30,821 nucleotides of DNA from NCBI GenBank assembly GCA_043816965.1, contig JBDRHK010000072.1:1-30821 (forward strand), read 5' to 3'. Of the stretch, positions 3 through 30,781 are shown in pieces. A program made the position numbers and the translations under genes. Under the pieces are notes generated by a model that worked only from the letters and a program-made list of their open reading frames with translations, did not search any database and was not told where the DNA came from. This DNA comes from Candidatus Iainarchaeum sp. Its GTDB lineage: Archaea > Iainarchaeota > Iainarchaeia > Iainarchaeales > JAFCCJ01. The first letter of the stretch is position 1. The number at the start of each line of letters is the position of its first letter.

Positions 3-2849
3 GGCTATACCCAATTCACCGCAACAGCCTACAGCACCGCAACAGGCTATGGCTGGGAAAACACCTCCAGCATCTATGCCGACACAAGGTCATCAGGAAA
101 CGATTTGGAAATAGACATGCACCAGATAGATGCAGAAAAGCGGTTCTTTGTTGATGTTCCTGATGGCACTTACAATGTTACATTGCATTTCTATGATGCG
201 TCATTTGGCCAGCTGGGAATAAATGTCGATATTGAATCTGCTAATGTAATAAGCAACTTCAACCTCAATACCGCAACCCACATAACCCGGACATTCGAAA
301 CATCAGTTACTGATTCCCAATTGACAATAAGGATTTACAGCTCAATAGGCGCAGGAATGATACTGAACGGTTTGGAAGTTGAGGAGATAGGGGGCTGCAA
401 CGATGGGGCAACAAGAATCTGCGACACAGGCCTGCAGGGAGCCTGCTCTGCAGGGGAGCAGACCTGCTCAAATGAAATCTGGGGCATCTGCGGGCAAATA
501 GTTTTTCCATCTGCCGAAATCTGTGGAAATGGAATTGATGAGGATTGCGACGGTTCTGATCTGCAATGCCCATCAGGAGATGGAGTAATTTTTGAGGATG
601 ATTTCGAGGGATGGACTGATTTTTACCCTGCAGAAGAAAACGTAATTTGGGACACCCGAAACGGCTCCACTGCAAATATAGCGACCGCCTCAAATGGGAA
701 GTGGTGCAATGGCATGGACTGGAATGAGTATGGGCTGCCTGACACACAGGTAATCACTTCGCAGGGAAGAAACAATAGTTCAAGCCTTGTAGGGAATATT
801 GAGTCCAGAGTACAGCCTGCCGCGGGCCTGACTACAATACTCCAGGACAGAACCCATGACGAACTATATTTCAGGTGGTATACAAAATACGATCCTGAAT
901 GGGGATGGTGGCCAAGTCAAACTTCACAAAAGTTGGCACGAATAAGATGGACCCCGGAGGGCTCAGAATGTTATGTGTCTGATCCTGATGATATTATCCC
1001 AATATTTGCCTGGGGGAATATGGTTCATGCAATATTTCCGGTTCAGGGCGTTACGCCGACAGTTTACTCCAGCCCTGAAGCTTTGTGGTCCAATTATGGT
1101 CCAGATAATTGGATTTCTCTTGAATTTTATGTTAAGTTAAATGACCTTGGACAGAGTAACGGGGTTTTAACTTCTTGGATAAATGGGGTGAAAGTTTTGC
1201 ATAGTGACGAGGTATTTCTCAGACAATCAGATACTCATATAAATAGCTTCAACATTGGAGATAACATCATCTACACCAACGCAGCAGGAAGTTCCGGTGT
1301 TCCGTGGTTCCCTCCTGAGGAGAGGCAGATATGGTGGGATGATATTGTGGTTTCCACCAATTACATCGGTCCCGAGTCTTGCCCTGACGGAACAGAAATC
1401 ACCCTGGAAAATGTCGGTCCCTGCTACTGCGGCGGTTCACCGAACCCGGGAGATACGAGCAATGTTTACACATCCGGCTACTGCTGTTCCGGAGCATGGC
1501 AGTCATCTTCCTGCTCCGCGCAGTGCACAGAGAGTTGGAGCTGCACCACGTGGAGCTCCTGCGTCAACAACCAGCAAACTCGCACATGTACTGATGCGAA
1601 TGATTGCGGAACCACAAATAACAAGCCTGCTGAATTGCAGAGCTGCTCGCTTCCGGGAGAAGGAGTAATTTTCGAGGATAATTTTGATGGCTGGCATGAA
1701 ATTGATACTGATTATCCTGGCGTTTTATGCGACGGCAATGATAATATTGAACTATGCAGGCCTGAAGGAAGTGAGTGGTGCGGATTTTCCCCTTATAGCT
1801 GGAGTGATTATGGATTGCCTGACTCCCAGGTTAAGTCTAATGGCGGAAGATTTGGAAGCAATTCTTTAGTAAGCAATATTGAGAGCAGGATCCAGCCTAC
1901 AGGAAGCCTTACTGGTTGGATTCCAGAGAAAAATCATGATGAACTGTATTTCCGCTGGTACCTGAAATACGACCCAACCTGGAGCTGGTGGCCAGAACAA
2001 AACGGGCAGAAACTGGCAAGAATACAGTGGAATCCTGAAGGAACAGAGTGCGGTGCTTTAACAGAATATGCTAAATCCGCATGGAATTGGGGGAGAATGG
2101 TCTATTACATAGGTGGAACAATACCAACAATATATTCTGACCCTGAGGTTTATTGGTATGATTATGAACCAGGAAATTGGATTTTACTCGAGAATTATAT
2201 TAAGCTTAACACAGTAGGGGAGAGTAATGGGGTTCTATCCTCCTGGATTGATGGGAAAAAAGTTCTCCATATTGAAAATATGGAATTAAGGACAAGCGAT
2301 GTCCATCTCAATAAAATCGCATTCCCAGGCAATATAATCTACACCAACCAGCCAGGCTCATCAGGTGTTCCCTGGTTTCCGCCCGAGGAAAAGCAGCTTT
2401 GGACCGATGATTTCGTTATAAGCACCAACTACATTGGCCCGGAACCATGCCCTGATGGAACAAAAATTACAATGGAAAATGTCGGCGCATGCTACTGTGG
2501 TACAAGTTATGCATCGCCAGACTGCAATGCTACAGACCCTTCAGCCTGCACAGGAATAGTCGATTCCGGCTACTGCTGCAACAATTCCTGGCAGGAAAAT
2601 GCATGCACCCCTCCCGAGGAGTGTTTGGTTGATGTCGATGCATGCACAATCTCTCTCGGAACTTTAGACAATTGCTCGCAGGATAATTTGGTTTACCAGT
2701 ATGAAGTAAACACGACAGTTGAAAACACAGTTATTGGGCTGCAGGAAAACAAAAGTTACGATATTAAAATCGAGAATTTAACTGTAGAAACCGAACAAAA
2801 CATCTCCCGAAATTCAAATTCAGAAGGAGTGCTGGAATTCAGCAGCTGA
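3..2849 (+). CDS. Large Cys-rich extracellular/surface protein, 5'-truncated by the window edge: carbohydrate-binding-like domain, Cys-rich repeat, two tandem lectin/polysaccharide-lyase-like beta-sandwich domains
   Basis: The frame is open from nt 3 (GYTQFTATAYSTATGYGWEN...), so the TTG at 105 is not the real start. GYGW...FFVDVPDGTYNVTLHF resembles malectin/galactose-binding-like domains. EICGNGIDEDCDG is a Cys/Asp-rich repeat. Two copies of IFED.F.GW...ELYFRWY.KYD..W.W...W...E.Y.KLN..G.SNG.L..WI.G are present. Confidence 0.7.
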   Translation, partial: GYTQFTATAYSTATGYGWENTSSIYADTRSSGNDLEIDMHQIDAEKRFFVDVPDGTYNVTLHFYDASFGQLGINVDIESANVISNFNLNTATHITRTFETSVTDSQLTIRIYSSIGAGMILNGLEVEEIGGCNDGATRICDTGLQGACSAGEQTCSNEIWGICGQIVFPSAEICGNGIDEDCDGSDLQCPSGDGVIFEDDFEGWTDFYPAEENVIWDTRNGSTANIATASNGKWCNGMDWNEYGLPDTQVITSQGRNNSSSLVGNIESRVQPAAGLTTILQDRTHDELYFRWYTKYDPEWGWWPSQTSQKLARIRWTPEGSECYVSDPDDIIPIFAWGNMVHAIFPVQGVTPTVYSSPEALWSNYGPDNWISLEFYVKLNDLGQSNGVLTSWINGVKVLHSDEVFLRQSDTHINSFNIGDNIIYTNAAGSSGVPWFPPEERQIWWDDIVVSTNYIGPESCPDGTEITLENVGPCYCGGSPNPGDTSNVYTSGYCCSGAWQSSSCSAQCTESWSCTTWSSCVNNQQTRTCTDANDCGTTNNKPAELQSCSLPGEGVIFEDNFDGWHEIDTDYPGVLCDGNDNIELCRPEGSEWCGFSPYSWSDYGLPDSQVKSNGGRFGSNSLVSNIESRIQPTGSLTGWIPEKNHDELYFRWYLKYDPTWSWWPEQNGQKLARIQWNPEGTECGALTEYAKSAWNWGRMVYYIGGTIPTIYSDPEVYWYDYEPGNWILLENYIKLNTVGESNGVLSSWIDGKKVLHIENMELRTSDVHLNKIAFPGNIIYTNQPGSSGVPWFPPEEKQLWTDDFVISTNYIGPEPCPDGTKITMENVGACYCGTSYASPDCNATDPSACTGIVDSGYCCNNSWQENACTPPEECLVDVDACTISLGTLDNCSQDNLVYQYEVNTTVENTVIGLQENKSYDIKIENLTVETEQNISRNSNSEGVLEFSS
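582..2606 (+). repeat. Internal tandem domain duplication (about 310 aa x2: 582-1514 and 1662-2606) separated by a thrombospondin-like Cys/Trp module (1524-1646)
   Basis: Both copies start GVIFED and contain GSSGVPWFPPEE and STNYIGPE.CPDGT.IT.ENVG.CYCG. The linker is CTESWSCTTWSSCVNNQQTRTCTDANDC. Confidence 0.9.
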
Positions 2850-12810: not shown

Positions 12811-14091
12811 TCAAAACTCACCCAAAGTTTTCTGCCCGCTTTTTCCGCCAATAATTCCCTTTCCAATTTCAATTTTTTTCTCCCGTAATTCCTCCTCAGA
12901 ATCGCAGATAAATGGTGTTCCGTAATTTCCCCCACCGCCAGGGGAGTAAACAACAAAGCCCTTGCGGAATGCCTCAATCTTTTTTCCCACAGCAGGATTC
13001 AGTTCCTTCAATTCAGAAACATCGGCATCAACCAGAACCTTTATCTCATCCCCGAACCTCTCAACATAATCCCTCCAAAGTGATTGCACCTTTTGCGAGT
13101 TTATCATCTGCATCCCCAAAGCAATCTGGATAATTTCCGCAAGTGGGAGCGAGTGCATGTAAGGCGGCCTGAAATCAGGATGGGTTTCCTTATCAAAATT
13201 TGCCAGTTCCATTATCCTTTCCCTAACCCCTTTCTTAATTGTCCCCTTGCACTTGGAACAGCTCCACCCTAACTTCTCAGCCTCTTCGAGGGTGTATTTA
13301 ACATAGCAGGAATTGCAGGCGGTGAGATGGTATTTCCCCTCCTGCGGATTCAGGCCAACATTGAGGGTAATCCTCTCTCCGCTCCTGTCCTCTAATGCCT
13401 TTTTCAGTTCCTTAAAACTCGGCTCCTTTAATTTAATCCTGTTAAATTCCCTCCCAATCCGGTTTGGCCAGGGGGAGTGGGCATCAGAATTTGTGATAAA
13501 TGAATAGTTGTGGTTTTCCCCAATCAAATCCGCGAAATAGGAATCAGCGCTCAGGCCCAGCTCAATAAAATTAATCTTCTCCGCCATTCCCCCATACAAT
13601 TCCTTCAGTGAATTGAAGTGTGCGTAAACTGAAAAATATGGGGTAAATGCATGTGCAGGCCCTATAAGCCCCCCGACCTCTTCCACTTTTTTTGCAATCT
13701 CCTCAGCGCTGAGCCTGATAACCGGCCTGCCACAGCCCCATGAATCGAAAATCGCCTTTCCCTCCATTTTACCCTTCAGCGTGAGCGCGCTCTCCAAATC
13801 AGGGAGGAAAATCACATGATGAACACGCTTATTGCACTGTACTTCAGTTCCAATAATGAAAGGGGTTTTGTATTCTTTCTCAATAAAAATCCCATTGCTC
13901 TCCTCAATCAGGTTCTGCTTAACATGCTCAAACCACGTTCCCTGAAGGATATCTGAGGTATGCAGCAGGCCAAGCCCCTTAAGATGCGCCTGCTCTGAAA
14001 TGATTGGGAGAAGCATATTCTTGCTCACCCCTGTGGAATAAGGCCCGTGCAGGTGCAGATCAGCATTATACTCTTTCAACAAAACCCCCAA
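12811..14091 (-). CDS. Endonuclease Q (TIGR00375 family, PHP domain plus Zn finger)
   Basis: Motifs ADLHLH..YS..VSK.M, VHH, GPAHAFTPY, ELGLSAD, NSDAHSP...RIGREFN, GKYH.TAC..C...C..C.G.IKKGV..RI and PGGGG.YG, plus a terminal PIP box QKTLGEF. The TTG start is uncertain (14091/14082/14079). Confidence 0.88.
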   Translation of the reverse strand: MGVLLKEYNADLHLHGPYSTGVSKNMLLPIISEQAHLKGLGLLHTSDILQGTWFEHVKQNLIEESNGIFIEKEYKTPFIIGTEVQCNKRVHHVIFLPDLESALTLKGKMEGKAIFDSWGCGRPVIRLSAEEIAKKVEEVGGLIGPAHAFTPYFSVYAHFNSLKELYGGMAEKINFIELGLSADSYFADLIGENHNYSFITNSDAHSPWPNRIGREFNRIKLKEPSFKELKKALEDRSGERITLNVGLNPQEGKYHLTACNSCYVKYTLEEAEKLGWSCSKCKGTIKKGVRERIMELANFDKETHPDFRPPYMHSLPLAEIIQIALGMQMINSQKVQSLWRDYVERFGDEIKVLVDADVSELKELNPAVGKKIEAFRKGFVVYSPGGGGNYGTPFICDSEEELREKKIEIGKGIIGGKSGQKTLGEF

Positions 14092-15141: not shown

Positions 15142-15445
15142 TTCCAAGGAAGTAAAGCACCAATAAAACCCCAATTCCCGCCAACCCAAAAAGTGCCGAA
15201 AGAAGCAGGCTTATCCAGAAATCCAGCTGAATTTTGAGGACAAAAACAACAATTCCCCAGGCAATAAGCCCCAAAACCGAATTAATTATCACCTTTACAA
15301 TAAGGTCCTTCAGTTTGAGCAGGATAATAACCGCGATAATGAGAAGAACTATCCCCCCAACAAGAATCAAGGGGTTGCCAACAAAAGGCAATTGCATTCC
15401 TGGATCAATTGGCATCTCCCCCGCCTGCAGCAAAATCCCGAGCAT
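15131..15445 (-). CDS. Small membrane protein, BofA (pro-sigmaK processing inhibitor)-like
   Basis: Three hydrophobic segments with the K.IINSVLGL...LFGLAGIGVLLVL..LG pattern typical of the BofA family. AGGTGG SD upstream. Confidence 0.6.
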   Translation of the reverse strand: MLGILLQAGEMPIDPGMQLPFVGNPLILVGGIVLLIIAVIILLKLKDLIVKVIINSVLGLIAWGIVVFVLKIQLDFWISLLLSALFGLAGIGVLLVLYFLGITI

Positions 15446-15565
15446 AATTCCACCTATATATTACATTTAATTATTCTAATTAATATATACTATAGTGATT
15501 ATTATAGTTTACTAAATTCCCCCCCAAACCCATCATTTATATTCTTTATTCCCCAAAACCTTAAT

Positions 15566-16201
15566 ATGCCTCAATATACTGAAGACCAGAAGAAGATAGC
15601 CCTGGTTCTGCTCCATGAGCCGAAAACCATTGAGGAACTGAACAAGCAGCTCAATATCCCCTATGACAAGATCCAGAAGGAAATCAAGGATATGCTGAAA
15701 TTGAAGGTTATCACTCAGGGAGGATATCCCTCAAAATACGCCCTGAAAGAGGAAATAGCCACCGCCGTAAGGATGAGGAAGGAAAATGCTTCAGAGGATA
15801 AGTTCAAATTGCGCCTGAAGATAATAATCGAGGCCCAGGCAATCGAGGACACCCTCCTGAAAAAGAAGATGGGGGAAATAAAGGGGATGATTGAGAAGGA
15901 AAAGGATTTCAGGCTATATGACATTTACTTTGCCCCGCTGATAAAGCAGGATGAGAATTACGCAACCTATCTGGAAATTAATTTGTCTGTGAAGGATTTC
16001 CGTGCACTTGCAAGATTGCTTTTCTTCTATGGCCCAAGCACAATAGAAATAATTTCCCCGGAAAAGCTTGAATTAACCGCGGATGAGTTGCAGGATGGGT
16101 TGGTTGACATGGCAGACATGATTCACAACTACAACAATTACATCGCAAGCAAGATGAACCTTGAGGAACTGGAAAACTTCAACAAAAGCCTCTTTGGCTA
16201 A
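15566..16201 (+). CDS. Winged-HTH domain protein fused to an uncharacterised archaeal domain
   Basis: ATG at 15566 (the ORF-track extension from 15392 overlaps the divergent gene). N-terminal KIA.VL..EPKT.EEL...L.IP...I...I..M.KL..I fits a wHTH. C-terminal E....V.DF..L......YGPS.IEII.PE. Confidence 0.6.
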   Translation: MPQYTEDQKKIALVLLHEPKTIEELNKQLNIPYDKIQKEIKDMLKLKVITQGGYPSKYALKEEIATAVRMRKENASEDKFKLRLKIIIEAQAIEDTLLKKKMGEIKGMIEKEKDFRLYDIYFAPLIKQDENYATYLEINLSVKDFRALARLLFFYGPSTIEIISPEKLELTADELQDGLVDMADMIHNYNNYIASKMNLEELENFNKSLFG

Positions 16202-16397
16202 GCAAATGGTTTAAAAATAAGTCGATTGCCTTAATAATTAAAAAGGAATGGTTCCTATTTCTATATAAGAAACAATAATCTAACGCTGTTTCAGTAAGTT
16301 CCTTATTGGTGTTCGCAGATTGCCGGAATTGGATTCAACAAAAGCCTTAATTTGCCTCTAATTGGCCATTTAAGGCAAAATATGGCGTGTGCGCCAA

Positions 16398-16413
16398 CCG
16401 AAAGGTATTTAAA
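16398..16413 (+). promoter_or_regulatory. BRE/TATA promoter of the S-layer gene
   Basis: CCGAAAGG-TATTTAAA matches the archaeal BRE plus TATA arrangement about 125 nt upstream of the ATG. SD GAGGTGA at 16519-16525. Confidence 0.65.
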
Positions 16414-16533
16414 GGAGGGTGTGTTAGATTATTAGAAGCCTTTAGATATCTCTGTCTCGGACTTTGTGAGTTTGAACCGATAGATGTTTATGGGCGAAAT
16501 TTTCATAAGATAATTTGTGAGGTGAAACAAAAT

Positions 16534-19500
16534 ATGAAAGGTTTGAGCATAAAAAAGCTAGCAGCTGTAGGAATTGGAGCAGCTCTAGTAGGCACAGCCT
16601 TAGCGCCAATGGTTTCGGCGGCATTAAGCCTACAAAAGTCCGATATCTATGGAGCAAGTGGTTCCCCCAATGTGAGCATTATTGTTGGATCTGACGCACA
16701 GGTCAGCGATGGTGTTTGGGCAGGAAACATTGCTGCAAAGATTGCTGAGAAAGCTACTATGACAAAAACAGTCTCAGTTTCCGGCTCTCCAGGAGAGGGT
16801 GGAGGCTCAGACGCGTCAGTAAGCGGTCTTAGCGTGGACTTGACTATAGGTGGAACCGTCAGCTATGGTGCTGGGTCTAAACAATACAAGATAAATCTAA
16901 ATTCAACGGCAGGAAGGTCGGAAGTTGATGCAGCTAACGATACAAATGCATTGACAAATGCACAACTCCCTCACCTGTACAATCAATCCTTGTCTCAGAA
17001 AGTCAACGGTGTTACCACAACCCCGACCATTCAGGAGAAGATCGGTGTTGAGGTCGATGCAAAGTTTGACAAGGTTGACCACAAAGACCTTGTTGCGTTC
17101 ATTAACAACAGCAAGTTCTACTACGAGGCGAAATTGGGCTCAACAGGTATTGATTTGAATGGGACAACATTCTCCGATTCAGGATCTGACGATGCAGTCA
17201 AAATTATCCTGTTCGGTGAGCAGTACAGCCTAAGTAGCGCCACTCTGAGCGGCACAAAGTACTTGAAAATGGTCAAGACAAGCGCCAAAGAGTCATATAA
17301 CGAGGGAGAGACTATCACCGGCTTGGTCGGTGCAGGGCTCTATGACGGACAAGATGTAACCGTTAAGCTCGTTCAGATAACGCAGGCAGGTGCGGCAGCA
17401 GCAACATATAGTGCGACCTTTGAGCTCTATGATTCAAGCGGCACAAAGATTGACACACAGACTATTGCAGCAAATGCCAATCTGAAAGACTCGTTTGTTG
17501 ATTCAAACGACGACTATTCACTGCAGAGCAATCTGTATGTTGATACAATTGCCGTGGGTGCAACAACCGCCTCAGGTTATGTTGAAGTAACCAAGGGCAC
17601 CGATACAGTCGAGATGTATGATACTAAAGGGTATCCATACGACTCAACAGACACAAGCGGAATCTATGACTACACAGTCACCATAACCACAAGCGGAAAC
17701 TACCTGCAGAAGATAAAGGTCCAGAACTCAAGAGATACCTGGAATAATTCATCTACAGGAAATGGTCCGCTATTCCCGACAGCCGCTGGGCAGTCACTTA
17801 CAGGAAATACGGGCAATTCAGCCGTTTTCGGTCAGTCTTTGGCTGACGGAACATTGGGAAAGGGCTATGCAAGTGTGGAGTATTATGGATTCGAAGCTAA
17901 CCAGGAAAAAACCGTTATCGAGTTTGGCCAGAATGTTACCGGGCTTGATTCAACTGCAGCAGCAGGCGGACTGGCTTTCAGGGGAGCTGATGACACATCA
18001 CACAACCTCCCATTCTACCTGAAAGTAAATAACCCTGGCTTGAGCGGAAGTTCCTTCCTTTTCGATACCAAGACAATCTGGTATAAGATAGATGATGGAA
18101 CCCAGTCCTCAAATACCGACCTCAATATAACTGTAGCTGAGGGAGACTATGTCAACGGTGTTGCATGGACAACAATCGACTACAATGGCAGCTATGGCAA
18201 CTTCGAAGACCTGAACATAACAACTACTGACGGGATTCTGGATACAAACTCCTTTTTTGGAGGAAATTCTGCAGATACTAGGATCTCAATCGGCGACGTC
18301 AATTACACAATACTTGGCGCTGCGTCAGACAGAGTCTTCATAAAGCCAGATGCATGGATTGAGTTCAGGCAGCAAGGCAGTACGGGAACATTAATCAACA
18401 ACGTATCTGGAGATGAGGCGGACGAAACCTATGGTAAGTTGTTGTACAACTTCAACGTGGTTCACGATGTCAACGTCACCGCAAATAACATAAACCTGAA
18501 AGGCAATGGGGAAAGGATTTTCAACTATGCCTTCAAGGATCCGAGAGACGCCAACACATCCATACCAGATGTATATCTGATGCTGGATAACCAGCAATTG
18601 GGTGGCGCAGCTGAAGGATACCTCATACAGAATAACAAAGCTATTTCCTACTTGGGAACAGCAATACCGGCGAACGACGGAACATACACAGAGACATGGG
18701 ATAGGGACTTATCGGCCTTTATTCCTAAAACTAGCGACTTCAACACACTCGCAAATGTCTACACAGATCCAAATGCCTACCTTATCTCAACTTTCATAGT
18801 TGATGATGAAGTAAGCCTAGGCGACTTCAACGTCTATGTCGACAACTCTGATGGAGGAAATGTTGGTCCATTTACAAACTCCAACCTTACCTTCTTCACA
18901 AAGGACGTCGATTACAACGGAACTCAGTTGTCATGGAATCTGCAATCGGGAACAGTCTCAAACTACATCCAAGCAGCATACACCGATGCAGGAACCAAGG
19001 TAGAGTTGCTTGATGACGACGCAGGCGTGAAGCTGACCATCCCGGAGAATCTGGAGCAATCAATACTCTATGTTCTCGGAACGGAAGTTGCGACAACCGC
19101 AAGCGGCGAGCAGATAAGCATCTTGGACGGAGAAACAGGAATAACCTCAGTCGGAACCACCATAATGGTAGATGCCATTAACTATACGGCAAGCTGCAGT
19201 GGTGGAAGCGGGGCCGCAGGAACCTGTACCGCAACTCCAACAACCTACCAGGCACCAGCACCAGTCTCAAGACTGATACATCTGGATGTTGACAATGTCA
19301 CAGGCAAGAAAATAATTGTCGGTGGACCTATAGTCAACAGCGTGGCAGCAAGCGTTAGCGGATTGGCCGATAGGCTGACCGCAGCAGGCGACACCGTTGC
19401 AGAGGTTGCAGCATCTGGAGATATAATCATCGCAGGTTATAATGCCGGCGATACCCAGAGAGCAGCACAGGACCTCATCAACGCAATCGACAACCTGTAA
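16534..19500 (+). CDS. S-layer protein (Methanococcales/Thermococcales-type N- and C-terminal domains)
   Basis: Signal MKGLSIKKLAAVGIGAALVGTALA. N-domain IIVGSDA..SD...AGNIAAKIA. C-domain IIVGGPIVNS...IIIAGYNAGDT.RAA..LI. More than a dozen N-x-S/T sequons, strong SD and a terminator. The real start is ATG 16534, not GTG 16387. Confidence 0.9.
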   Translation: MKGLSIKKLAAVGIGAALVGTALAPMVSAALSLQKSDIYGASGSPNVSIIVGSDAQVSDGVWAGNIAAKIAEKATMTKTVSVSGSPGEGGGSDASVSGLSVDLTIGGTVSYGAGSKQYKINLNSTAGRSEVDAANDTNALTNAQLPHLYNQSLSQKVNGVTTTPTIQEKIGVEVDAKFDKVDHKDLVAFINNSKFYYEAKLGSTGIDLNGTTFSDSGSDDAVKIILFGEQYSLSSATLSGTKYLKMVKTSAKESYNEGETITGLVGAGLYDGQDVTVKLVQITQAGAAAATYSATFELYDSSGTKIDTQTIAANANLKDSFVDSNDDYSLQSNLYVDTIAVGATTASGYVEVTKGTDTVEMYDTKGYPYDSTDTSGIYDYTVTITTSGNYLQKIKVQNSRDTWNNSSTGNGPLFPTAAGQSLTGNTGNSAVFGQSLADGTLGKGYASVEYYGFEANQEKTVIEFGQNVTGLDSTAAAGGLAFRGADDTSHNLPFYLKVNNPGLSGSSFLFDTKTIWYKIDDGTQSSNTDLNITVAEGDYVNGVAWTTIDYNGSYGNFEDLNITTTDGILDTNSFFGGNSADTRISIGDVNYTILGAASDRVFIKPDAWIEFRQQGSTGTLINNVSGDEADETYGKLLYNFNVVHDVNVTANNINLKGNGERIFNYAFKDPRDANTSIPDVYLMLDNQQLGGAAEGYLIQNNKAISYLGTAIPANDGTYTETWDRDLSAFIPKTSDFNTLANVYTDPNAYLISTFIVDDEVSLGDFNVYVDNSDGGNVGPFTNSNLTFFTKDVDYNGTQLSWNLQSGTVSNYIQAAYTDAGTKVELLDDDAGVKLTIPENLEQSILYVLGTEVATTASGEQISILDGETGITSVGTTIMVDAINYTASCSGGSGAAGTCTATPTTYQAPAPVSRLIHLDVDNVTGKKIIVGGPIVNSVAASVSGLADRLTAAGDTVAEVAASGDIIIAGYNAGDTQRAAQDLINAIDNL

Positions 19501-19544: not shown

Positions 19545-19622
19545 CACTCAACCCAGAATTCTTTACGTAAAAATCCTTGCCAATTAATTTCTTTTTTAAT
19601 CCTTTTGCAGCTGAAGAATCCT

Positions 19623-20240
19623 ATGAATAAAAACCAGCAGATTGTGGTAAGTGCAATTGTTATTTTGCTCATTCTCGCATTTGCATATATAATTTTTCAG
19701 GATATGAACAAAAGATATGAATATGAATTTGTGGAGGAGAATATTAAATTCGCCTCCAACTACAATCCTCCCGGGGAATACCTAATCTCATTGAAGAATG
19801 AAAATGAATTCATAATATCTCCTACATTTTATGAAAGAGGCCCTGCAACCGCAATTATGACCGGCTCCCTTGTCCTTTTCAACTCGATATTGATTGCAAA
19901 TGGAAAAGATGTTGTTACCTTGGGCAGGGTTGTTGATCCTGAGAATAACCTTCTTTACTGCCAAACCAATGAGGGGGATGTTTTGGTTAATGAGAAGATT
20001 GAGCTGGAAGAATGCAAAAATATGCTAAATACAGATGAAAAGGCAATTATCTTTATTGAGCTCCCAAATGAAAATCTCGATATTTCCGAGGCGATTCTGG
20101 AAAAAAACAGAATCACCATACGGCCAAACAGCTCTGACGAGGTATCAAGGGTTTCTTTCGTTGTTTTGAAAACAATGTATAGTGATTCTGAGGAAATTAT
20201 TGCCCAAATAAACGAGATTTTGGGCAAGATAAGCGTATAG
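19623..20240 (+). CDS. Hypothetical N-terminally membrane-anchored protein
   Basis: ATG 19623. TM segment IVVSAIVILLILAFAYIIF is followed by an acidic domain with two Cys. Confidence 0.65.
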   Translation: MNKNQQIVVSAIVILLILAFAYIIFQDMNKRYEYEFVEENIKFASNYNPPGEYLISLKNENEFIISPTFYERGPATAIMTGSLVLFNSILIANGKDVVTLGRVVDPENNLLYCQTNEGDVLVNEKIELEECKNMLNTDEKAIIFIELPNENLDISEAILEKNRITIRPNSSDEVSRVSFVVLKTMYSDSEEIIAQINEILGKISV

Positions 20241-21682: not shown

Positions 21683-24427
21683 TTACTTATACCTTAAAAT
21701 TGCCCCTATTCCCCCAAAGCCCTTGAAGAACTGCTCTCCCTCAGGGGTGTCGGTTGAAATTATTTTCAGTTCTGCCCCGGTCTCGGCAGCCTTCTCAAGC
21801 ATAAAATCAAGGTAATCGGCATCCTCAAGAAGTTCAGTTTGGCCATTGCACTTTCCGCACTTTTCTCCCCCGGCCTCATAATTTGCGTCCTTAACCAGTT
21901 TCTCTTCCTGCAGGCCGCAGTTGTTGCACTGGAATTTTATAACTCCCCAATCAATTCCCTCAGAAAGCAGCAGTTCCTTAACCTTCCCAAGCTTAAGTGC
22001 CTCATTAACTTCTTTTTCTCCATATGCCGCAAGTTCATCCTTCGCAATTTGCTCCAAAAAATCATTTACAGCGCCCCTTTCTTTCATAAGGTCAGTATCC
22101 CGCAAAACCTCTTCACTTCTTTGCACAAGTTCCCTTATCCCTGATTCATCAGTGTATGAAATATCGACTGTTGAGATTATATTTTTCTTCAGCCTATGGT
22201 CAAGCAAGTCCCTGTTCAAAAAATAATTTTTTGTTATTCCTGGCCCCCCAATAATTAACCCCTTTAGTTTATCCCCGTATGGGAGAAATGCCAGGTTCAT
22301 CTTTTCACTCACCCTTTTGTAAAAGTCCTGGGCAGCCTCCTCCCTCAGGTGCTCGAAACGTTTGGCCGAATTGTGGACTAGTATGCCATTGGCAAGAAAG
22401 TTCTGCCTGCTGACTTCTATATCAGTCATTGGCACATGCTTTTTACATTTGGATATACTTTTTATTTTTACCGGAATTAACGGCCTTTCAAGTATTTTTT
22501 TAAACTGGGCAAAAAGTTTTTTATTTGACTTTACTTCGCCAATTATGGAGTTTTTGAATACCTCTTTACTCATAGATCTGCCATCCCTGAAAAAATTTGA
22601 GACTTTCGAGAAATTTTGCGTGTTCAGCCCCTCCCGCTCAAAGAGTTTCCTGATGAATTTGCCGCTTACAAGAACTTGCCTTACCTTACTTTTTCTATTC
22701 TCTGTCTTCTCTGTCAGTTTTTTGAGTTTTGCCTCCTTCTGTTTTGATGTAAAACCGATAAACCGGCCAAAAAGTTCTAAGGATTTTTTTTCAGTAATGT
22801 CAATGGTGAATCTATGGTTATCTGAGTAAGGGTTTCTATTTGAATCATATTCGTGAACAGAAGCAATTATTCCAAATCTTAGCAGTGCCAATTGTATCTG
22901 TATCGCGAGATTTTTGTTTATGATTCCAAGCCCAAGCCTCCCGGAAGTTACGTAGCCTTCTGCATCAAAAAAACCTTTCAGAAATCCCGCAAGCACCCCA
23001 TTTGGAGAGGCCAAGATATTCTGCGGAACAAGGGTTTCTTTCGCACTTTTTTTGCTAAAAAACTCATTTTTTATGAAGCGCACTATTGGTTTACCGGAAA
23101 CCCTCAATTGGTGGTAGTTTTTGCCTTCCCTGAATCTTAAACTCGTTTTTGCCCTGAATATTTTTCTGCATGATTTTTCGTAGAAATTGGCAATTTCTTG
23201 GGTTTGTTCGGAAAAACCAATCCTTTCATTTTCAAAATTGCCGTCTCCCAAAAAATAGCCCATTATTTGAGCAACTAATGGGCCAAGTTTTTCTGGCAAA
23301 ACTATGGTGCTCACCTGCGAGCAATAATTTCCAATAAATATTTCATGATCAATTTTTAGGGATTTACAGTAGTTTTTCAAAAACTCAAGTCTCGGGTTAA
23401 AATGGCTTATTTCAACTGCCGAAATAGTTGCTTGGTGCAATCCTGACAGTTTGCCAAGTTTTTTTTGTGAAAGTTTTGCCCCCTTTCTTGTATTGACCAA
23501 TAGTTTTATGCCTATATCGGATATTTTGTAGTTGTTAAAATAATTTGTTTTCAGTTTTTGTATTTTTCCTTTTGTATTTATTTTTTCAGGCATTAGTAAA
23601 GTGTCATTTTCTTTCAGTTCCCGTGCAGCCCTTTCCTTTATTTCGTTTTCTTCAAATATGAAAAAAGTGTGGTCGCCTGAAGATTCAACCGACATTCTTG
23701 GAAATTTTGTGGTTATCTGAATAGCTTGTTTTTTTGATTGCCACTTGTTTATAATTTGGGAATTTGTAATGCTAAAGTCTTCAAGATCTGCGGAAGTGAC
23801 CGTTAGTGGATTGTGCAGGTCTTTTATTTGAATTATTTTCCCATCCGCAAGTTGCACGAAGGTATCGTTTGCGAGGCATTGCCCCCCGGCCCTTGTCTTC
23901 CCCGCGACTCCTGAGGTGAATTTTCCCAAAATATCATATTTTTTCCCGACAAGGGCGGCAATTGTTGCCTCATTTTTATCGATTGTGACAAGCCCGTAAA
24001 TTTCGGAAGGTTTTGTCATCTCCTTTAGCGGAGCAAGATGGAACTTTGAATCACACCAATACAATTTCGTTTTCAAATCATTAATCGGCCTGATTGTGAA
24101 AAGCCTAATATCATTTCTTCCCTCAACAACAGAAACATTTCCCGCAAAAACAACCAGCCCCCTTTTTGGAATCTTGAAATTAATCTGCTTCAGGAAGTTG
24201 ATTATTTTCCTCAATGCCCCCTGCACATTTTTCCTTGTGCTGGGGCTCTTTATGTTCGAGCTCTGGCTGATTTCCTCTGTCAATTGCCCCATAACCGAAC
24301 TCCGGTCTGTTCCGAAGGGTATGTAAACCGTGATAAGTTCTGTCCCTTTGCCTTTGTGCTTGCTGAGTTTTTCCAGCTTTTTCTTGAACAGAACGATTTC
24401 TGACTGATTAACCTCGTCCAAATGCAT
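21683..24427 (-). CDS. prf1: Peptide chain release factor aRF1 precursor containing an intein (914 aa; spliced product 411 aa)
   Basis: Motifs G.GTELIT.YIP, SNIKS, YWCDSKF, GKTRAGGQ|...|SAKRFEHLR, IIGGPG.TK and EG.QF..GFGGIGAILRY. C-domain Zn ribbon CxxC...CxxC. Confidence 0.96.
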   Translation of the reverse strand: MHLDEVNQSEIVLFKKKLEKLSKHKGKGTELITVYIPFGTDRSSVMGQLTEEISQSSNIKSPSTRKNVQGALRKIINFLKQINFKIPKRGLVVFAGNVSVVEGRNDIRLFTIRPINDLKTKLYWCDSKFHLAPLKEMTKPSEIYGLVTIDKNEATIAALVGKKYDILGKFTSGVAGKTRAGGQCLANDTFVQLADGKIIQIKDLHNPLTVTSADLEDFSITNSQIINKWQSKKQAIQITTKFPRMSVESSGDHTFFIFEENEIKERAARELKENDTLLMPEKINTKGKIQKLKTNYFNNYKISDIGIKLLVNTRKGAKLSQKKLGKLSGLHQATISAVEISHFNPRLEFLKNYCKSLKIDHEIFIGNYCSQVSTIVLPEKLGPLVAQIMGYFLGDGNFENERIGFSEQTQEIANFYEKSCRKIFRAKTSLRFREGKNYHQLRVSGKPIVRFIKNEFFSKKSAKETLVPQNILASPNGVLAGFLKGFFDAEGYVTSGRLGLGIINKNLAIQIQLALLRFGIIASVHEYDSNRNPYSDNHRFTIDITEKKSLELFGRFIGFTSKQKEAKLKKLTEKTENRKSKVRQVLVSGKFIRKLFEREGLNTQNFSKVSNFFRDGRSMSKEVFKNSIIGEVKSNKKLFAQFKKILERPLIPVKIKSISKCKKHVPMTDIEVSRQNFLANGILVHNSAKRFEHLREEAAQDFYKRVSEKMNLAFLPYGDKLKGLIIGGPGITKNYFLNRDLLDHRLKKNIISTVDISYTDESGIRELVQRSEEVLRDTDLMKERGAVNDFLEQIAKDELAAYGEKEVNEALKLGKVKELLLSEGIDWGVIKFQCNNCGLQEEKLVKDANYEAGGEKCGKCNGQTELLEDADYLDFMLEKAAETGAELKIISTDTPEGEQFFKGFGGIGAILRYK
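22370..23878 (-). mobile_element. Class-1 intein (503 aa) with LAGLIDADG homing endonuclease and XRE-type HTH
   Basis: Block A CLANDTFVQLADG, block B VESSGDHTFF, LAGLIDADG motifs IMGYFLGDG and FLKGFFDAEG, block F/G MTDIEV...NFLANGILVHN followed by Ser+1. Removing it restores GGQSA.RF. Confidence 0.96.
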
Positions 24428-24470: not shown

Positions 24471-25307
24471 ATGGTAGGAGTTGATGGTGTGAGTTCTATT
24501 TTCGACATGTTCTCAGAGGCCTATGAGGAGCAAAAAACTGATGATGAAATGGAAAGAGGGCATGAACCGGAGGAGGAATATTCCTCCAGTACTGATTATT
24601 CCTATTCCCCCAAACCCGCAATTACCTATGTGATTTCTGTGGGTGGGTCAATTCTCATTGACCAGAAGCCGGATTATTTGATGATTGCAAAATTTGCAGA
24701 ATCAATTAACAAACTCTCTGATGAAGGATATAGGATTGTTCTAGTTGTCGGAGGGGGAAAGGTCTGCAGGAATTATGTCGCCGCCGCAAAATCACTGGGA
24801 GCCAATAATTTCCAGCTGGATGAATTGGGAATTACAATTACAAGGGCAAATGCCTCGCTTCTTTTGCCTGTAATCAACAATGCACACAAGGCAGTCCTGA
24901 CCGAAGTAAACCAGGCAAGGCCTGTTCTTGATGTTGGAAAAATCCCTGTTTTTGGCGGCCTGCATCCAGGAATTACAACTGATGCGGTTGCGGCGCTTCT
25001 CGCAGAGGCATTGGACGGAATTTTCATAAACCTGACAAATGTGGACGGGGTTTACTCCATGGACCCGAAAAAGCACCCGCATGCAAAATTCTATGATGAA
25101 ATAGCATATAATGAGCTTATTTCCCTGATGAAATTGGGGGAAAGCAAGCCGGCGCAAAATTTAGTTTTAGACCTCCCCTGCTGCCTCATCCTTAAAAGGA
25201 GCAAACTAAAGGGGATGGTAATGAACGGGACAGATTTGGACAATTTCGAGGCAGCAATCCGCGGAGGGGAATTTAAGGGGACTGTAATAGGGGACAAGAA
25301 TGAGTGA
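24471..25307 (+). CDS. pyrH: Uridylate kinase with an acidic N-terminal extension
   Basis: Motifs VISVGGS, VVGGG..CR.Y, D.LGI..TR.NA, GG..PG.TTDAVAALLAE, TNVDGVY..DPKK.P.A and GEF.GT. The start is uncertain (24471/24489/24507). Confidence 0.93.
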   Translation: MVGVDGVSSIFDMFSEAYEEQKTDDEMERGHEPEEEYSSSTDYSYSPKPAITYVISVGGSILIDQKPDYLMIAKFAESINKLSDEGYRIVLVVGGGKVCRNYVAAAKSLGANNFQLDELGITITRANASLLLPVINNAHKAVLTEVNQARPVLDVGKIPVFGGLHPGITTDAVAALLAEALDGIFINLTNVDGVYSMDPKKHPHAKFYDEIAYNELISLMKLGESKPAQNLVLDLPCCLILKRSKLKGMVMNGTDLDNFEAAIRGGEFKGTVIGDKNE

Positions 25308-25650
25308 GACTAAAACCGCGGAGATAATTTGGAAGATAGTTAGTCAGAAAGGATTTGCTAATTTAGATACTAAGATGGGTGATGAGCTTATATCAATTAT
25401 TGAAGCAAATAAGAAGGATTTTATTATATTGAAATTAGGGGGAACACGTTGTTTTACTGTTTCAGATGATTTTGTAAATAAACATGGTTTTAATGAAAGA
25501 CAAGAATACAAAACATTTCATGAAGGTCGCGAAGGGGCTTATTTACTTTTCCAAAAACAAGCTACGAACACCCCGCGCAAAAGAGCAAAGAAGACTTCTG
25601 GATCTCGAAAATCCAAGCCCATGGGCCGAAGCCCGAAACGCCCCCACTAA
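25300..25650 (+). CDS. Hypothetical protein with a basic C-terminal tail
   Basis: Overlaps the pyrH stop by 8 nt and fills the gap to dph2. Tail TPRKRAKKTSGSRKSKPMGRSPKRPH. Confidence 0.6.
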   Translation: MSETKTAEIIWKIVSQKGFANLDTKMGDELISIIEANKKDFIILKLGGTRCFTVSDDFVNKHGFNERQEYKTFHEGREGAYLLFQKQATNTPRKRAKKTSGSRKSKPMGRSPKRPH

Positions 25651-30139: not shown

Positions 30140-30781
30140 TTATGCGGCCTTTTTTTGAACCTGATTAACATTACTTCCAATTTCCCCAGGATTAACATCA
30201 ATTCTGCTGATATTTGCCCCTGGGTGGAATTTACCGAAAAATTGCTTTAATTTCACCTTCTCATCCCTTGTGAAAAGCCTGAAGTTTTCGATATTGTTCT
30301 CGATGTTAACTTTCATTTGCATCCCCTTTATTTGGTCCAGTGCCCCTGACTCAATCTTTTCTTTAATCAACTGCTCAACTGCGGCATTCAATTCCTGCGG
30401 GCTTTTTATTTGCCCGCCTTTAAGCAGTTCAAGTATCTCCTGCCTCAAAGCCAGAAGCTCCGGGTTCTCGCTTAGGTGCCAGTATCTCGAGCTCCTTAAA
30501 CGGGATTGGTCAAGTTCAAAATCAGCAAGCGCCCTTGCCTTGGCAAGGTTTACTTTTTTTGGATTTGGAAAATATGTTTTTTCAATAGGCGGCCGACCCA
30601 TTACTCCTTTCTTACCTCTCCCAAATATTCTTGGAAATGCTTCTTTTGCAATATGGCCCCCAGCATTGCGCAGAGTATTACCAATACCTTGCCTGTCGCG
30701 GTTTCTCGCAGGAGTTTTTCCTTTTGCCCGCGGTGCCCCTTGCCTTACTGGCGTTCTTCGCCTTACCTGTGCCCTTGCCAT
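30140..30781 (-). CDS. Hypothetical protein with an Arg-rich N-terminus
   Basis: 213-aa ATG ORF filling the gap upstream of rpl10e. It starts MARAQVRRRTPVRQGAPRAKGKTPARNR and has no domain I recognise. Confidence 0.6.
   Translation of the reverse strand: MARAQVRRRTPVRQGAPRAKGKTPARNRDRQGIGNTLRNAGGHIAKEAFPRIFGRGKKGVMGRPPIEKTYFPNPKKVNLAKARALADFELDQSRLRSSRYWHLSENPELLALRQEILELLKGGQIKSPQELNAAVEQLIKEKIESGALDQIKGMQMKVNIENNIENFRLFTRDEKVKLKQFFGKFHPGANISRIDVNPGEIGSNVNQVQKKAA

Follow-up and report, generated by a model that had tools for sequence, protein, structure and literature searches.

We analysed a window of 30,821 nucleotides (contig JBDRHK010000072.1 of Candidatus Iainarchaeum sp., assembly GCA_043816965.1, at its full length), in which the gene for the archaeal class-I release factor aRF1 carries a long in-frame insert with the anatomy of an intein, placed at the GGQ motif of the factor. 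The gene is read from the minus strand. The precursor, its two exteins and the parts of the predicted intein are given below in coordinates of the window; residues of the exteins are numbered along the precursor and those of the intein parts from the first residue of the intein (aa, amino acids).

21683..24427, minus strand: aRF1 precursor, one single open reading frame of 914 aa plus the stop codon (21683-21685), with matches to TIGR03676 and to eRF1_1, eRF1_2 and eRF1_3, and with the NIKS and GGQ motifs
23879..24427, minus strand: N-extein, residues 1-183, with GGQ at its end and Gln183 as the -1 residue, aligned to positions 2-174 of the aRF1 model
22370..23878, minus strand: predicted intein, 503 aa, Cys1 to Asn503, delimited by the translation, Pfam, the AlphaFold2 model and Foldseek
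23522..23878, minus strand: N-terminal Hint lobe, residues 1-119, with Cys1 and block B Ser67..His70 (PF14890 positions 2-118; strands 7-119 of the model)
23324..23518, minus strand: XRE-type helix-turn-helix (HTH) domain of five helices, residues 121-185 (PF01381, HTH_3; helices 121-185 of the model)
22754..23281, minus strand: LAGLIDADG endonuclease domain, residues 200-375, with GYFLGDG (Asp212) and KGFFDAEG (Asp305, Glu307) (PF14528; fold of the model)
22490..22744, minus strand: helical domain, residues 379-463, between the endonuclease and the C-terminal Hint lobe (helices 379-463 of the model)
22370..22480, minus strand: C-terminal Hint lobe, residues 467-503, with block F Asp486 and block G His502-Asn503 (PF14890 positions 80-155 over 22370-22792)
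21686..22369, minus strand: C-extein, residues 687-914, starting with SAKRF, where Ser687 is the +1 nucleophile (positions 174-402 of the aRF1 model, 256 bits)

The host gene has the equivalog profile, the three domains and the NIKS and GGQ motifs of an aRF1/eRF1 class-I release factor. The NCBIfam aRF1 equivalog TIGR03676 scored 448.5 bits on the precursor (cut-off 234.7), in two stretches abutting at the insertion, and Pfam reported eRF1_1, eRF1_2 (again in two stretches) and eRF1_3. In translation, the junctions read ...GKTRAGGQ/CLANDT...GILVHN/SAKRFEHLRE..., where the slashes mark the ends of the insert. Positions 22370-23878 of the minus strand are free of stop codons and encode 503 aa from Cys to Asn, i.e., precursor residues 184-686; when they are taken out, 914-503 = 411 aa remain, which is the length of aRF1 once the intein is removed. 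A preliminary description of this DNA had placed an intein at GGQ/S of aRF1, spanning residues 184-686 and leaving 411 aa, and its coordinates and residues agree exactly with ours. Residue conservation was read from 120 aligned full-length database proteins, 119 of them besides the query, on which all the counts out of 120 given here are based; the Ser at position +1 of the C-extein was found in 120/120. Domain 3 of the factor also contains a CxxC...CxxC arrangement (Cys834, 837, 857 and 860; 21845-21928) that looks like a zinc ribbon. These cysteines were observed in 65-77 of the 120 homologues, and the segment is absent from an extein type of about 365 aa that is labelled Woesearchaeota.

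The same site was found empty in a relative from the same genus (genome G001; the genome of the window is G000). Its aRF1 is unbroken, measures 411 aa from the Met and reads GVAGKTRAGGQSAKRFEHLR; the sequence across the insertion point is GGQSAKRFEHLR, with GGQS intact. The exteins of the window are 91.8% (N-extein) and 87.7% (C-extein) identical to this protein. Because the orthologue is uninterrupted and 411 aa long, the insert can be placed exactly between the Gln and the Ser of GGQS. Hence, in keeping with the definition of a class-1 intein, the insert is in frame, its excision restores the host protein, and an empty orthologous site is established by observation.

The insert itself has the sequence features of class-1 splicing, with a nucleophile as first residue, a block B His, a block F Asp, a His-Asn end and Ser at +1. 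Cys1, which is Cys184 of the precursor, was present in 119/120 homologues. In the segment Ser67-Gly-Asp-His70, which we take to be the block B motif (T/S)xxH, Ser67 was found in 117/120 and His70 in 120/120, and Asp486 (block F), His502 and Asn503 were invariant (120/120 each). Such constancy at the junctions goes well beyond what chance would give. In agreement, the Pfam family Intein_splicing (PF14890) scored 68 bits (cut-off 35.8); the NCBIfam models TIGR01445 and TIGR01443 gave 19.5 bits, below the cut-off of 24.5, and 16.3 bits, near the cut-off of 15.6, respectively. Between the Hint lobes, two motifs with acidic ends, the profile LAGLIDADG_3 (PF14528, 60.3 bits, cut-off 22.5) and the fold mark a double-motif LAGLIDADG endonuclease. 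Its acidic residues were kept in most homologues (Asp212 and Asp305 in 116/120 each, Glu307 in 111/120), and Asp212 and Glu307 are presumably the catalytic ones, by analogy with I-DmoI. Three of the 120 aligned proteins are mini-inteins without the endonuclease domain. The HTH domain was recognized by HTH_3 (PF01381, 28.1 bits, cut-off 23) and is missing from intein forms of about 430 aa, for which no PF01381 is listed and which match the query over residues 190/191-503 or from a later start. The helical domain 379-463 has conserved Arg400, Gly406, Phe423 and Phe441 and matched no family; it is probably an extra DNA-binding part. With its conserved motifs, profile matches and fold, the insert is, judged by sequence and modelled structure, a canonical class-1 intein in which a LAGLIDADG homing endonuclease and an XRE-type HTH are nested.

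The fold was established with an AlphaFold2 model built from an alignment of 39 inteins out of genomes of the phylum, which reached a predicted local distance difference test score of 93.9 and a predicted template modelling (TM) score of 0.92 and showed five parts. The best Foldseek matches were solved structures of homing-endonuclease inteins, namely 7qss (E 1.6e-23), its variant 7qsu (5.9e-20), 1dq3 (2.1e-19) and 2cw7 (7.8e-19), followed by PhoVMA (7qst) and PI-SceI, and the LAGLIDADG core alone matched I-DmoI and I-Tsp061I with TMt values of about 0.65-0.74. A sequence search of the PDB returned 1dq3, 7qsu, 7qss and 2cw7 with E from 8e-7 to 2e-4, the best being 1dq3 (8.4e-7). TliVMA (7qss/7qsu) and PhoVMA (7qst), from Thermococcales, are likewise class-1 inteins of archaea that enclose a LAGLIDADG endonuclease and interrupt an essential host gene. 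TliVMA 7qss was the best structural match (TM 0.65/0.75) and a weak sequence match in the endonuclease part (E about 4e-6). The Thermococcales VMA inteins differ in host, which is the V/A-ATPase subunit A, and in size, 361-432 aa against the 503 aa of the aRF1 intein, and their identity in the structural alignment is 13-16%. PI-PfuI (1dq3, from Pyrococcus furiosus) and PI-PkoII (2cw7) are also large archaeal inteins, in which additional DNA-binding domains accompany the LAGLIDADG core, and 2cw7 spans most of the aRF1 intein model (TMq 0.68); their hosts are ribonucleotide reductase and DNA polymerase, respectively, and their identity to the aRF1 intein is 14-16%. To our knowledge, the accessory domains of PI-PfuI and PI-PkoII are not annotated as XRE-type HTH.

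Archaea have one class-I release factor. The window is contig C72 of G000, an assembly of 1.34 Mb in 109 contigs that is 86% complete. On C72 the aRF1 profile matched both halves of the gene; its only other hit, a weak pair on contig C78, turned out to be Pelota (TIGR00111, 276.5 bits, cut-off 177.65), without GGQ. A second, intein-free aRF1, which according to the preliminary description would have removed the dependence of termination on splicing, was thus not found by profile search of the 86%-complete assembly. Since no second aRF1 was found in the genome, the mature factor must arise by splicing, and it is fair to conclude that termination depends on it. The dependence that had been proposed stands in this respect, with a mature factor available only by way of splicing and a sole aRF1 found. 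Its other half, that the precursor is inactive, we infer from the geometry of the factor: a globular insert of 503 aa at the tip of the GGQ loop can reasonably be expected to keep the precursor from acting in the peptidyl-transferase centre. A methyltransferase of the HemK2/MTQ2 family, a family annotated as the methylase of the GGQ glutamine, was detected on contig C32 (152 bits, cut-off 87), and it would methylate the factor only after splicing.

From the residues present, the route to the mature factor can be proposed. The aRF1 gene would give a 914-aa precursor, from which the intein would excise itself. An N-S acyl shift at Gln183-Cys184 would come first, after which the hydroxyl of Ser687 would attack and produce a branched ester; Asn686 would then cyclise and set the intein free, and an O-N shift would join Gln183 to Ser687, leaving a 411-aa aRF1 with an intact GGQS loop. 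Both the splicing and its speed are inferred, and splicing is most likely constitutive.

A dead insertion that has broken aRF1, or a mis-assembly, would give a very different meaning to the locus, and the public reads leave room for it in so far as none runs across a junction. Three sequencing runs with 6-8% of the sampled words yielded short pieces: a perfect one of 266 nt inside the intein, pieces of 84-191 nt in the C-extein from an RNA library, and pieces of 151 nt in the N-extein; one read joint, skipping 1732, covered just 24 letters on the shorter side and stemmed from a diverged relative. These reads speak neither for nor against the junctions, expression or habitat. Such a reading has to face 914 open codons, splicing residues that are all intact in the only aRF1 found, and a gene that lies within a 30.8-kb contig of core genes. 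Moreover, the same architecture was observed in 38 other genomes of the phylum, in 119 other proteins and in 69 of 80 further loci. We consider a broken gene or an assembly artefact barely credible.

The allele is in fact widespread. Database proteins were searched as 90%-identity clusters, with 8000 candidates scored, E<=0.001 and lengths of 502-1600 aa; 335 proteins were returned, and every one of the best 120 listed, the query included, has the intein at GGQ/S. Their source labels are Diapherotrites, ainarchaeum, Aenigmarchaeota or Woesearchaeota. Several already carry the name 'eRF1/intein/homing endonuclease' from the Joint Genome Institute (JGI) pipeline, and others are named by NCBI 'LAGLIDADG family homing endonuclease' or 'helix-turn-helix domain-containing protein'. 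Species-representative genomes contain 249 stretches that code for a relative of the intein. Both junctions, GGQ/C...HN/S..RF, were read in one frame in 69 of the best 80 of these 249 stretches, and 10 of the remaining 11 have one junction, mostly at contig ends. The titles of these stretches name Iainarchaeum, Aenigmatarchaeota, Woesearchaeota, Nanoarchaeota and Pacearchaeota. Some contigs with the aRF1 intein bear submitter titles such as Thaumarchaeota, Chloroflexi bacterium, Falkowbacteria bacterium or Methanosarcinales (L116, L119, L184, L138 and others), and these are probably mislabelled or mis-binned.

Occupied and empty sites occur side by side among close relatives. In the order, comprising 41 genomes, the aRF1 match is split at model position 173/174 in 9, contiguous in 29 and only a fragment in 2, and one genome gave no aRF1 hit. 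In the phylum, 204 of the 215 genomes searched had an aRF1 match, 51 of them two matches; the split pattern was seen in 48/204 (best E between 4e-58 and 5e-78), and three genomes with two matches are ambiguous (G103, G184 and G206). The count of 48 comes from a per-genome table, and a search with the intein itself gave the coordinates for most. At the level of sequence, 93 loci were read, of which 39 are occupied and 53 are empty, while the remaining one (L044) resisted parsing. By the table, 14 genera include both states, and 13 of them were confirmed in sequence (g1, g3, g4, g11, g30, g33, g38, g54, g55, g58, g64, g65 and g66). The patchiness of the allele is thus a direct observation, and the occupied and empty alleles that the preliminary description had suggested looking for were both found, even within genera. 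The inteins fall into size classes of about 500 aa, about 430 aa (without the HTH) and 144 aa (mini-inteins); together with the empty sites, these forms are the stages expected of a homing cycle. Apparent stops inside the aRF1 of relatives, considered as possible read-through signals, were the terminal stop codon in all five cases read.

The codons flanking the insertion were compared between the window (23876-23881 and 22367-22372) and loci L013-L114. The Gln at -1 is encoded by CAA in 34/39 occupied and 31/53 empty sites (Fisher p 0.003), and the Ser at +1 by TCN in 26/39 and 21/53, respectively (Fisher p 0.012), where in both comparisons the genomes are kin and not independent. The empty site of G001 has the codons CAG/AGC. 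This bias could reflect a target preference of the endonuclease, co-conversion or phylogeny alone. Full-length matches to the aRF1 intein (residues 1-503, 26-32% identity) were also found within other host frames of 623-1372 aa (G160:C60, G161:C13, G111:C1, G169:C3, G162:C53, G121:C44, G051:C2, G010:C67, G032:C1 and others). Because of these full-length matches in other hosts, the aRF1 intein can be assigned to a wider family of large inteins of the phylum.

The histories of intein and host gene were observed to be discordant. For 79 full-length proteins (3081 pairs), the identities of exteins and inteins were only weakly correlated (Spearman coefficient 0.30); in some pairs the exteins are 56-59% identical and the inteins 74-78%, and in one pair the exteins are 88% and the inteins 51% identical. 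With 69 sequences that have full-size inteins, the extein data rejected the intein tree (log-likelihood difference 1088, approximately unbiased (AU) test p 0.0003) and the intein data rejected the extein tree (log-likelihood difference 2271, AU p 0.0006). These results indicate that the intein has moved between host lineages, and they show the combination expected of a mobile homing endonuclease, i.e., sporadic presence with a history unlike that of the host gene.

Collectively, the insert is very probably a selfish, mobile class-1 intein that homed into the GGQ/S-coding site of the single aRF1 gene. The freed 503-aa intein would act as a LAGLIDADG endonuclease aided by the HTH and the further helical domain. 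It would cut intein-free aRF1 genes at the same site, and repair would copy the intein in. The GGQ site would be a favourable target because it is unchangeable at the protein level, which would make precise loss rare and target sites common.

Several points weigh against this interpretation or limit it. At 86% completeness, the lack of a second aRF1 is strong but not absolute evidence. The FastTree trees were picked from the same data, which gives each partition's own tree some advantage in the AU test; the gaps in likelihood are, however, very large. A co-conversion tract by the insertion was not clearly seen when G000 and G001 were compared: their nucleotide sequences diverge by 22-23% over the 40 codons just downstream and by 17.8% over the whole C-extein, and windows that diverge as strongly lie elsewhere too. 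Since the nearest relative of the intein is only about 53% identical, with the nearest intein-bearing extein at about 70%, the genomes sampled include no recent donor, and the data are compatible with a gain here as well as with a loss in G001. Finally, a domesticated function would likewise agree with the strong conservation seen throughout the intein.

This last point leads to a second possibility, that the intein is fixed or domesticated, still splicing and no longer homing, and is retained either because it can hardly ever be deleted precisely at GGQ or because the free HTH-bearing protein serves the host, for instance in DNA binding or regulation. The whole intein is conserved, including the HTH and the helical domain 379-463, and the distance of about 53% to the nearest relative leaves no recent transfer into the lineage visible; both points count in favour of this possibility. 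However, the acidic residues of the endonuclease are kept in nearly all full-size copies, presence and absence within genera and the discordant trees argue for continuing mobility across the family, and forms without the HTH or without the whole endonuclease also occur. We therefore regard a domesticated intein as very unlikely.

The intein could also have been co-opted as a conditional switch, with the supply of active aRF1 gated by redox state, metal, temperature or growth state, as the preliminary description had raised. The sole aRF1 of the assembly is occupied, so that any slower splicing would limit termination. Conditional archaeal inteins exist: in the RadA inteins of Pyrococcus and Thermococcus, which also interrupt an essential archaeal host, splicing efficiency can limit the mature protein and conditional splicing has been shown by experiment (PMC11409957, PMC5790916 and PMC5238726). 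In the aRF1 intein, by contrast, nothing points to conditional splicing, and its patchiness speaks against a lineage-wide role. The aEF-2 and RtcB genes of the same genome, which act in translation and tRNA processing, bear inteins as well. A Cys at intein position 66, beside block B, is present in 43/120 homologues; it could pair with Cys1 and makes this subset of the family a candidate for redox control. Nevertheless, position 66 is a Ser in the window (23681-23683), so that a second Cys placed to bond Cys1, as in a redox trap, was not found here. No extein has a Cys within 10 residues of either junction (0/120), and Cys1 is the only universal Cys of the intein. The relative from the same genus manages without the intein, as do about three quarters of the phylum, both states occurring in 14 genera; the retained endonuclease residues and the conflict between intein and host trees are what is expected of a mobile parasite; and aRF1 is one of ten intein-bearing frames in G000. 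A gate residing in the aRF1 intein, alone or together with those of aEF-2 and RtcB, would allow splicing to slow in response to some cue (temperature, oxidation, metal or loss of contact with the host cell, for example) and thereby throttle termination globally, and precursor left unspliced but able to read stop codons might then act as a competitive inhibitor; we assign this scheme a low probability. Given the patchy allele, its separate history, the kept endonuclease residues, the lack of a junction Cys and the nine other intein genes, the idea of a switch is not upheld, and we find it unlikely. The aRF1 intein has the appearance of a genetic parasite, not that of a switch acting in regulation.

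The ten intein-bearing frames of the 1.34-Mb genome include, besides aRF1, those of aEF-2, a HerA-like helicase, AtpA (A-ATPase subunit A), a FlaI-like ATPase, MCM, Top6A, PolD DP2, RtcB and NrdD, at the following positions.

C42, 18343-22197 and 31021-33972: two frames
C4, 7934-10525: one frame
C40, 13464-16748: one frame
C15, 14113-17241: one frame
C5, 4372-7974: the MCM frame (L029)
C90, 2271-4931: one frame
C3, 2182-7128: one frame
C9, 2426-5725: one frame

The MCM intein also has an HTH_3 domain (residues 724-767 of the MCM protein), which follows the LAGLIDADG domain, whereas in the aRF1 intein it precedes it. The inteins of aEF-2 and RtcB, like archaeal inteins of the aIF2/aIF5B type, occupy conserved sites of the translation machinery, and no release factor is among these hosts. 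aIF2 is named as an archaeal intein host in PMC4760082, a 2015 survey in which core translation components have few inteins.

The rest of the window is ordinary core chromosome, with genes for PCNA, both primase subunits, GINS, aIF2-alpha, TruD and Dph2, together with a UMP-kinase-like protein, PEP synthase and L10e. Two probable surface proteins and six ORFs of 116-426 aa that match no Pfam family at E<=1e-5 were also noted:

3-2849, plus strand: probable surface protein of 948 aa with a Polysacc_lyase_14 stretch, open at the contig start
11933-12808, plus strand: ORF with no Pfam family
12811-14091, minus strand: ORF with no Pfam family
15392-16201, plus strand: ORF with no Pfam family
16387-19500, plus strand: probable surface protein of 1037 aa with an S_layer_C match
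19605-20240, plus strand: ORF with no Pfam family
25300-25650, plus strand: ORF with no Pfam family
30140-30781, minus strand: ORF with no Pfam family

In a full-text literature search, no account of a natural intein in aRF1 or eRF1 turned up. The terms release factor, eRF1 and aRF1 are absent from the main text of PMC4760082 and, along with COG1503, from two of its three supplementary files; PMC10710043 likewise lacks them, and PMC5871332 mentions a viral eRF1 and viral inteins separately. The novelty raised in the preliminary description holds only in part: the search found no published account, but the allele is abundant in public data, where some entries bear JGI names that already identify it. 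What is new with respect to known inteins is the host, aRF1, and the site, GGQ; the proposed mechanism and the defining features are those of class-1 and LAGLIDADG inteins.

These data carry a warning for annotation, since the names 'LAGLIDADG family homing endonuclease' and 'helix-turn-helix domain-containing protein' hide a release factor. They also make matched comparisons possible, because occupied and empty alleles stand side by side within genera. If splicing were conditional, it would constitute a new way of controlling termination, and the present evidence makes that unlikely. The host range of inteins is extended to a translation-termination factor, at its most conserved catalytic loop, and, as this is the single class-I release factor of archaea, the aRF1 intein offers a clean natural test case for whether such elements are pure parasites or sometimes take part in regulation.

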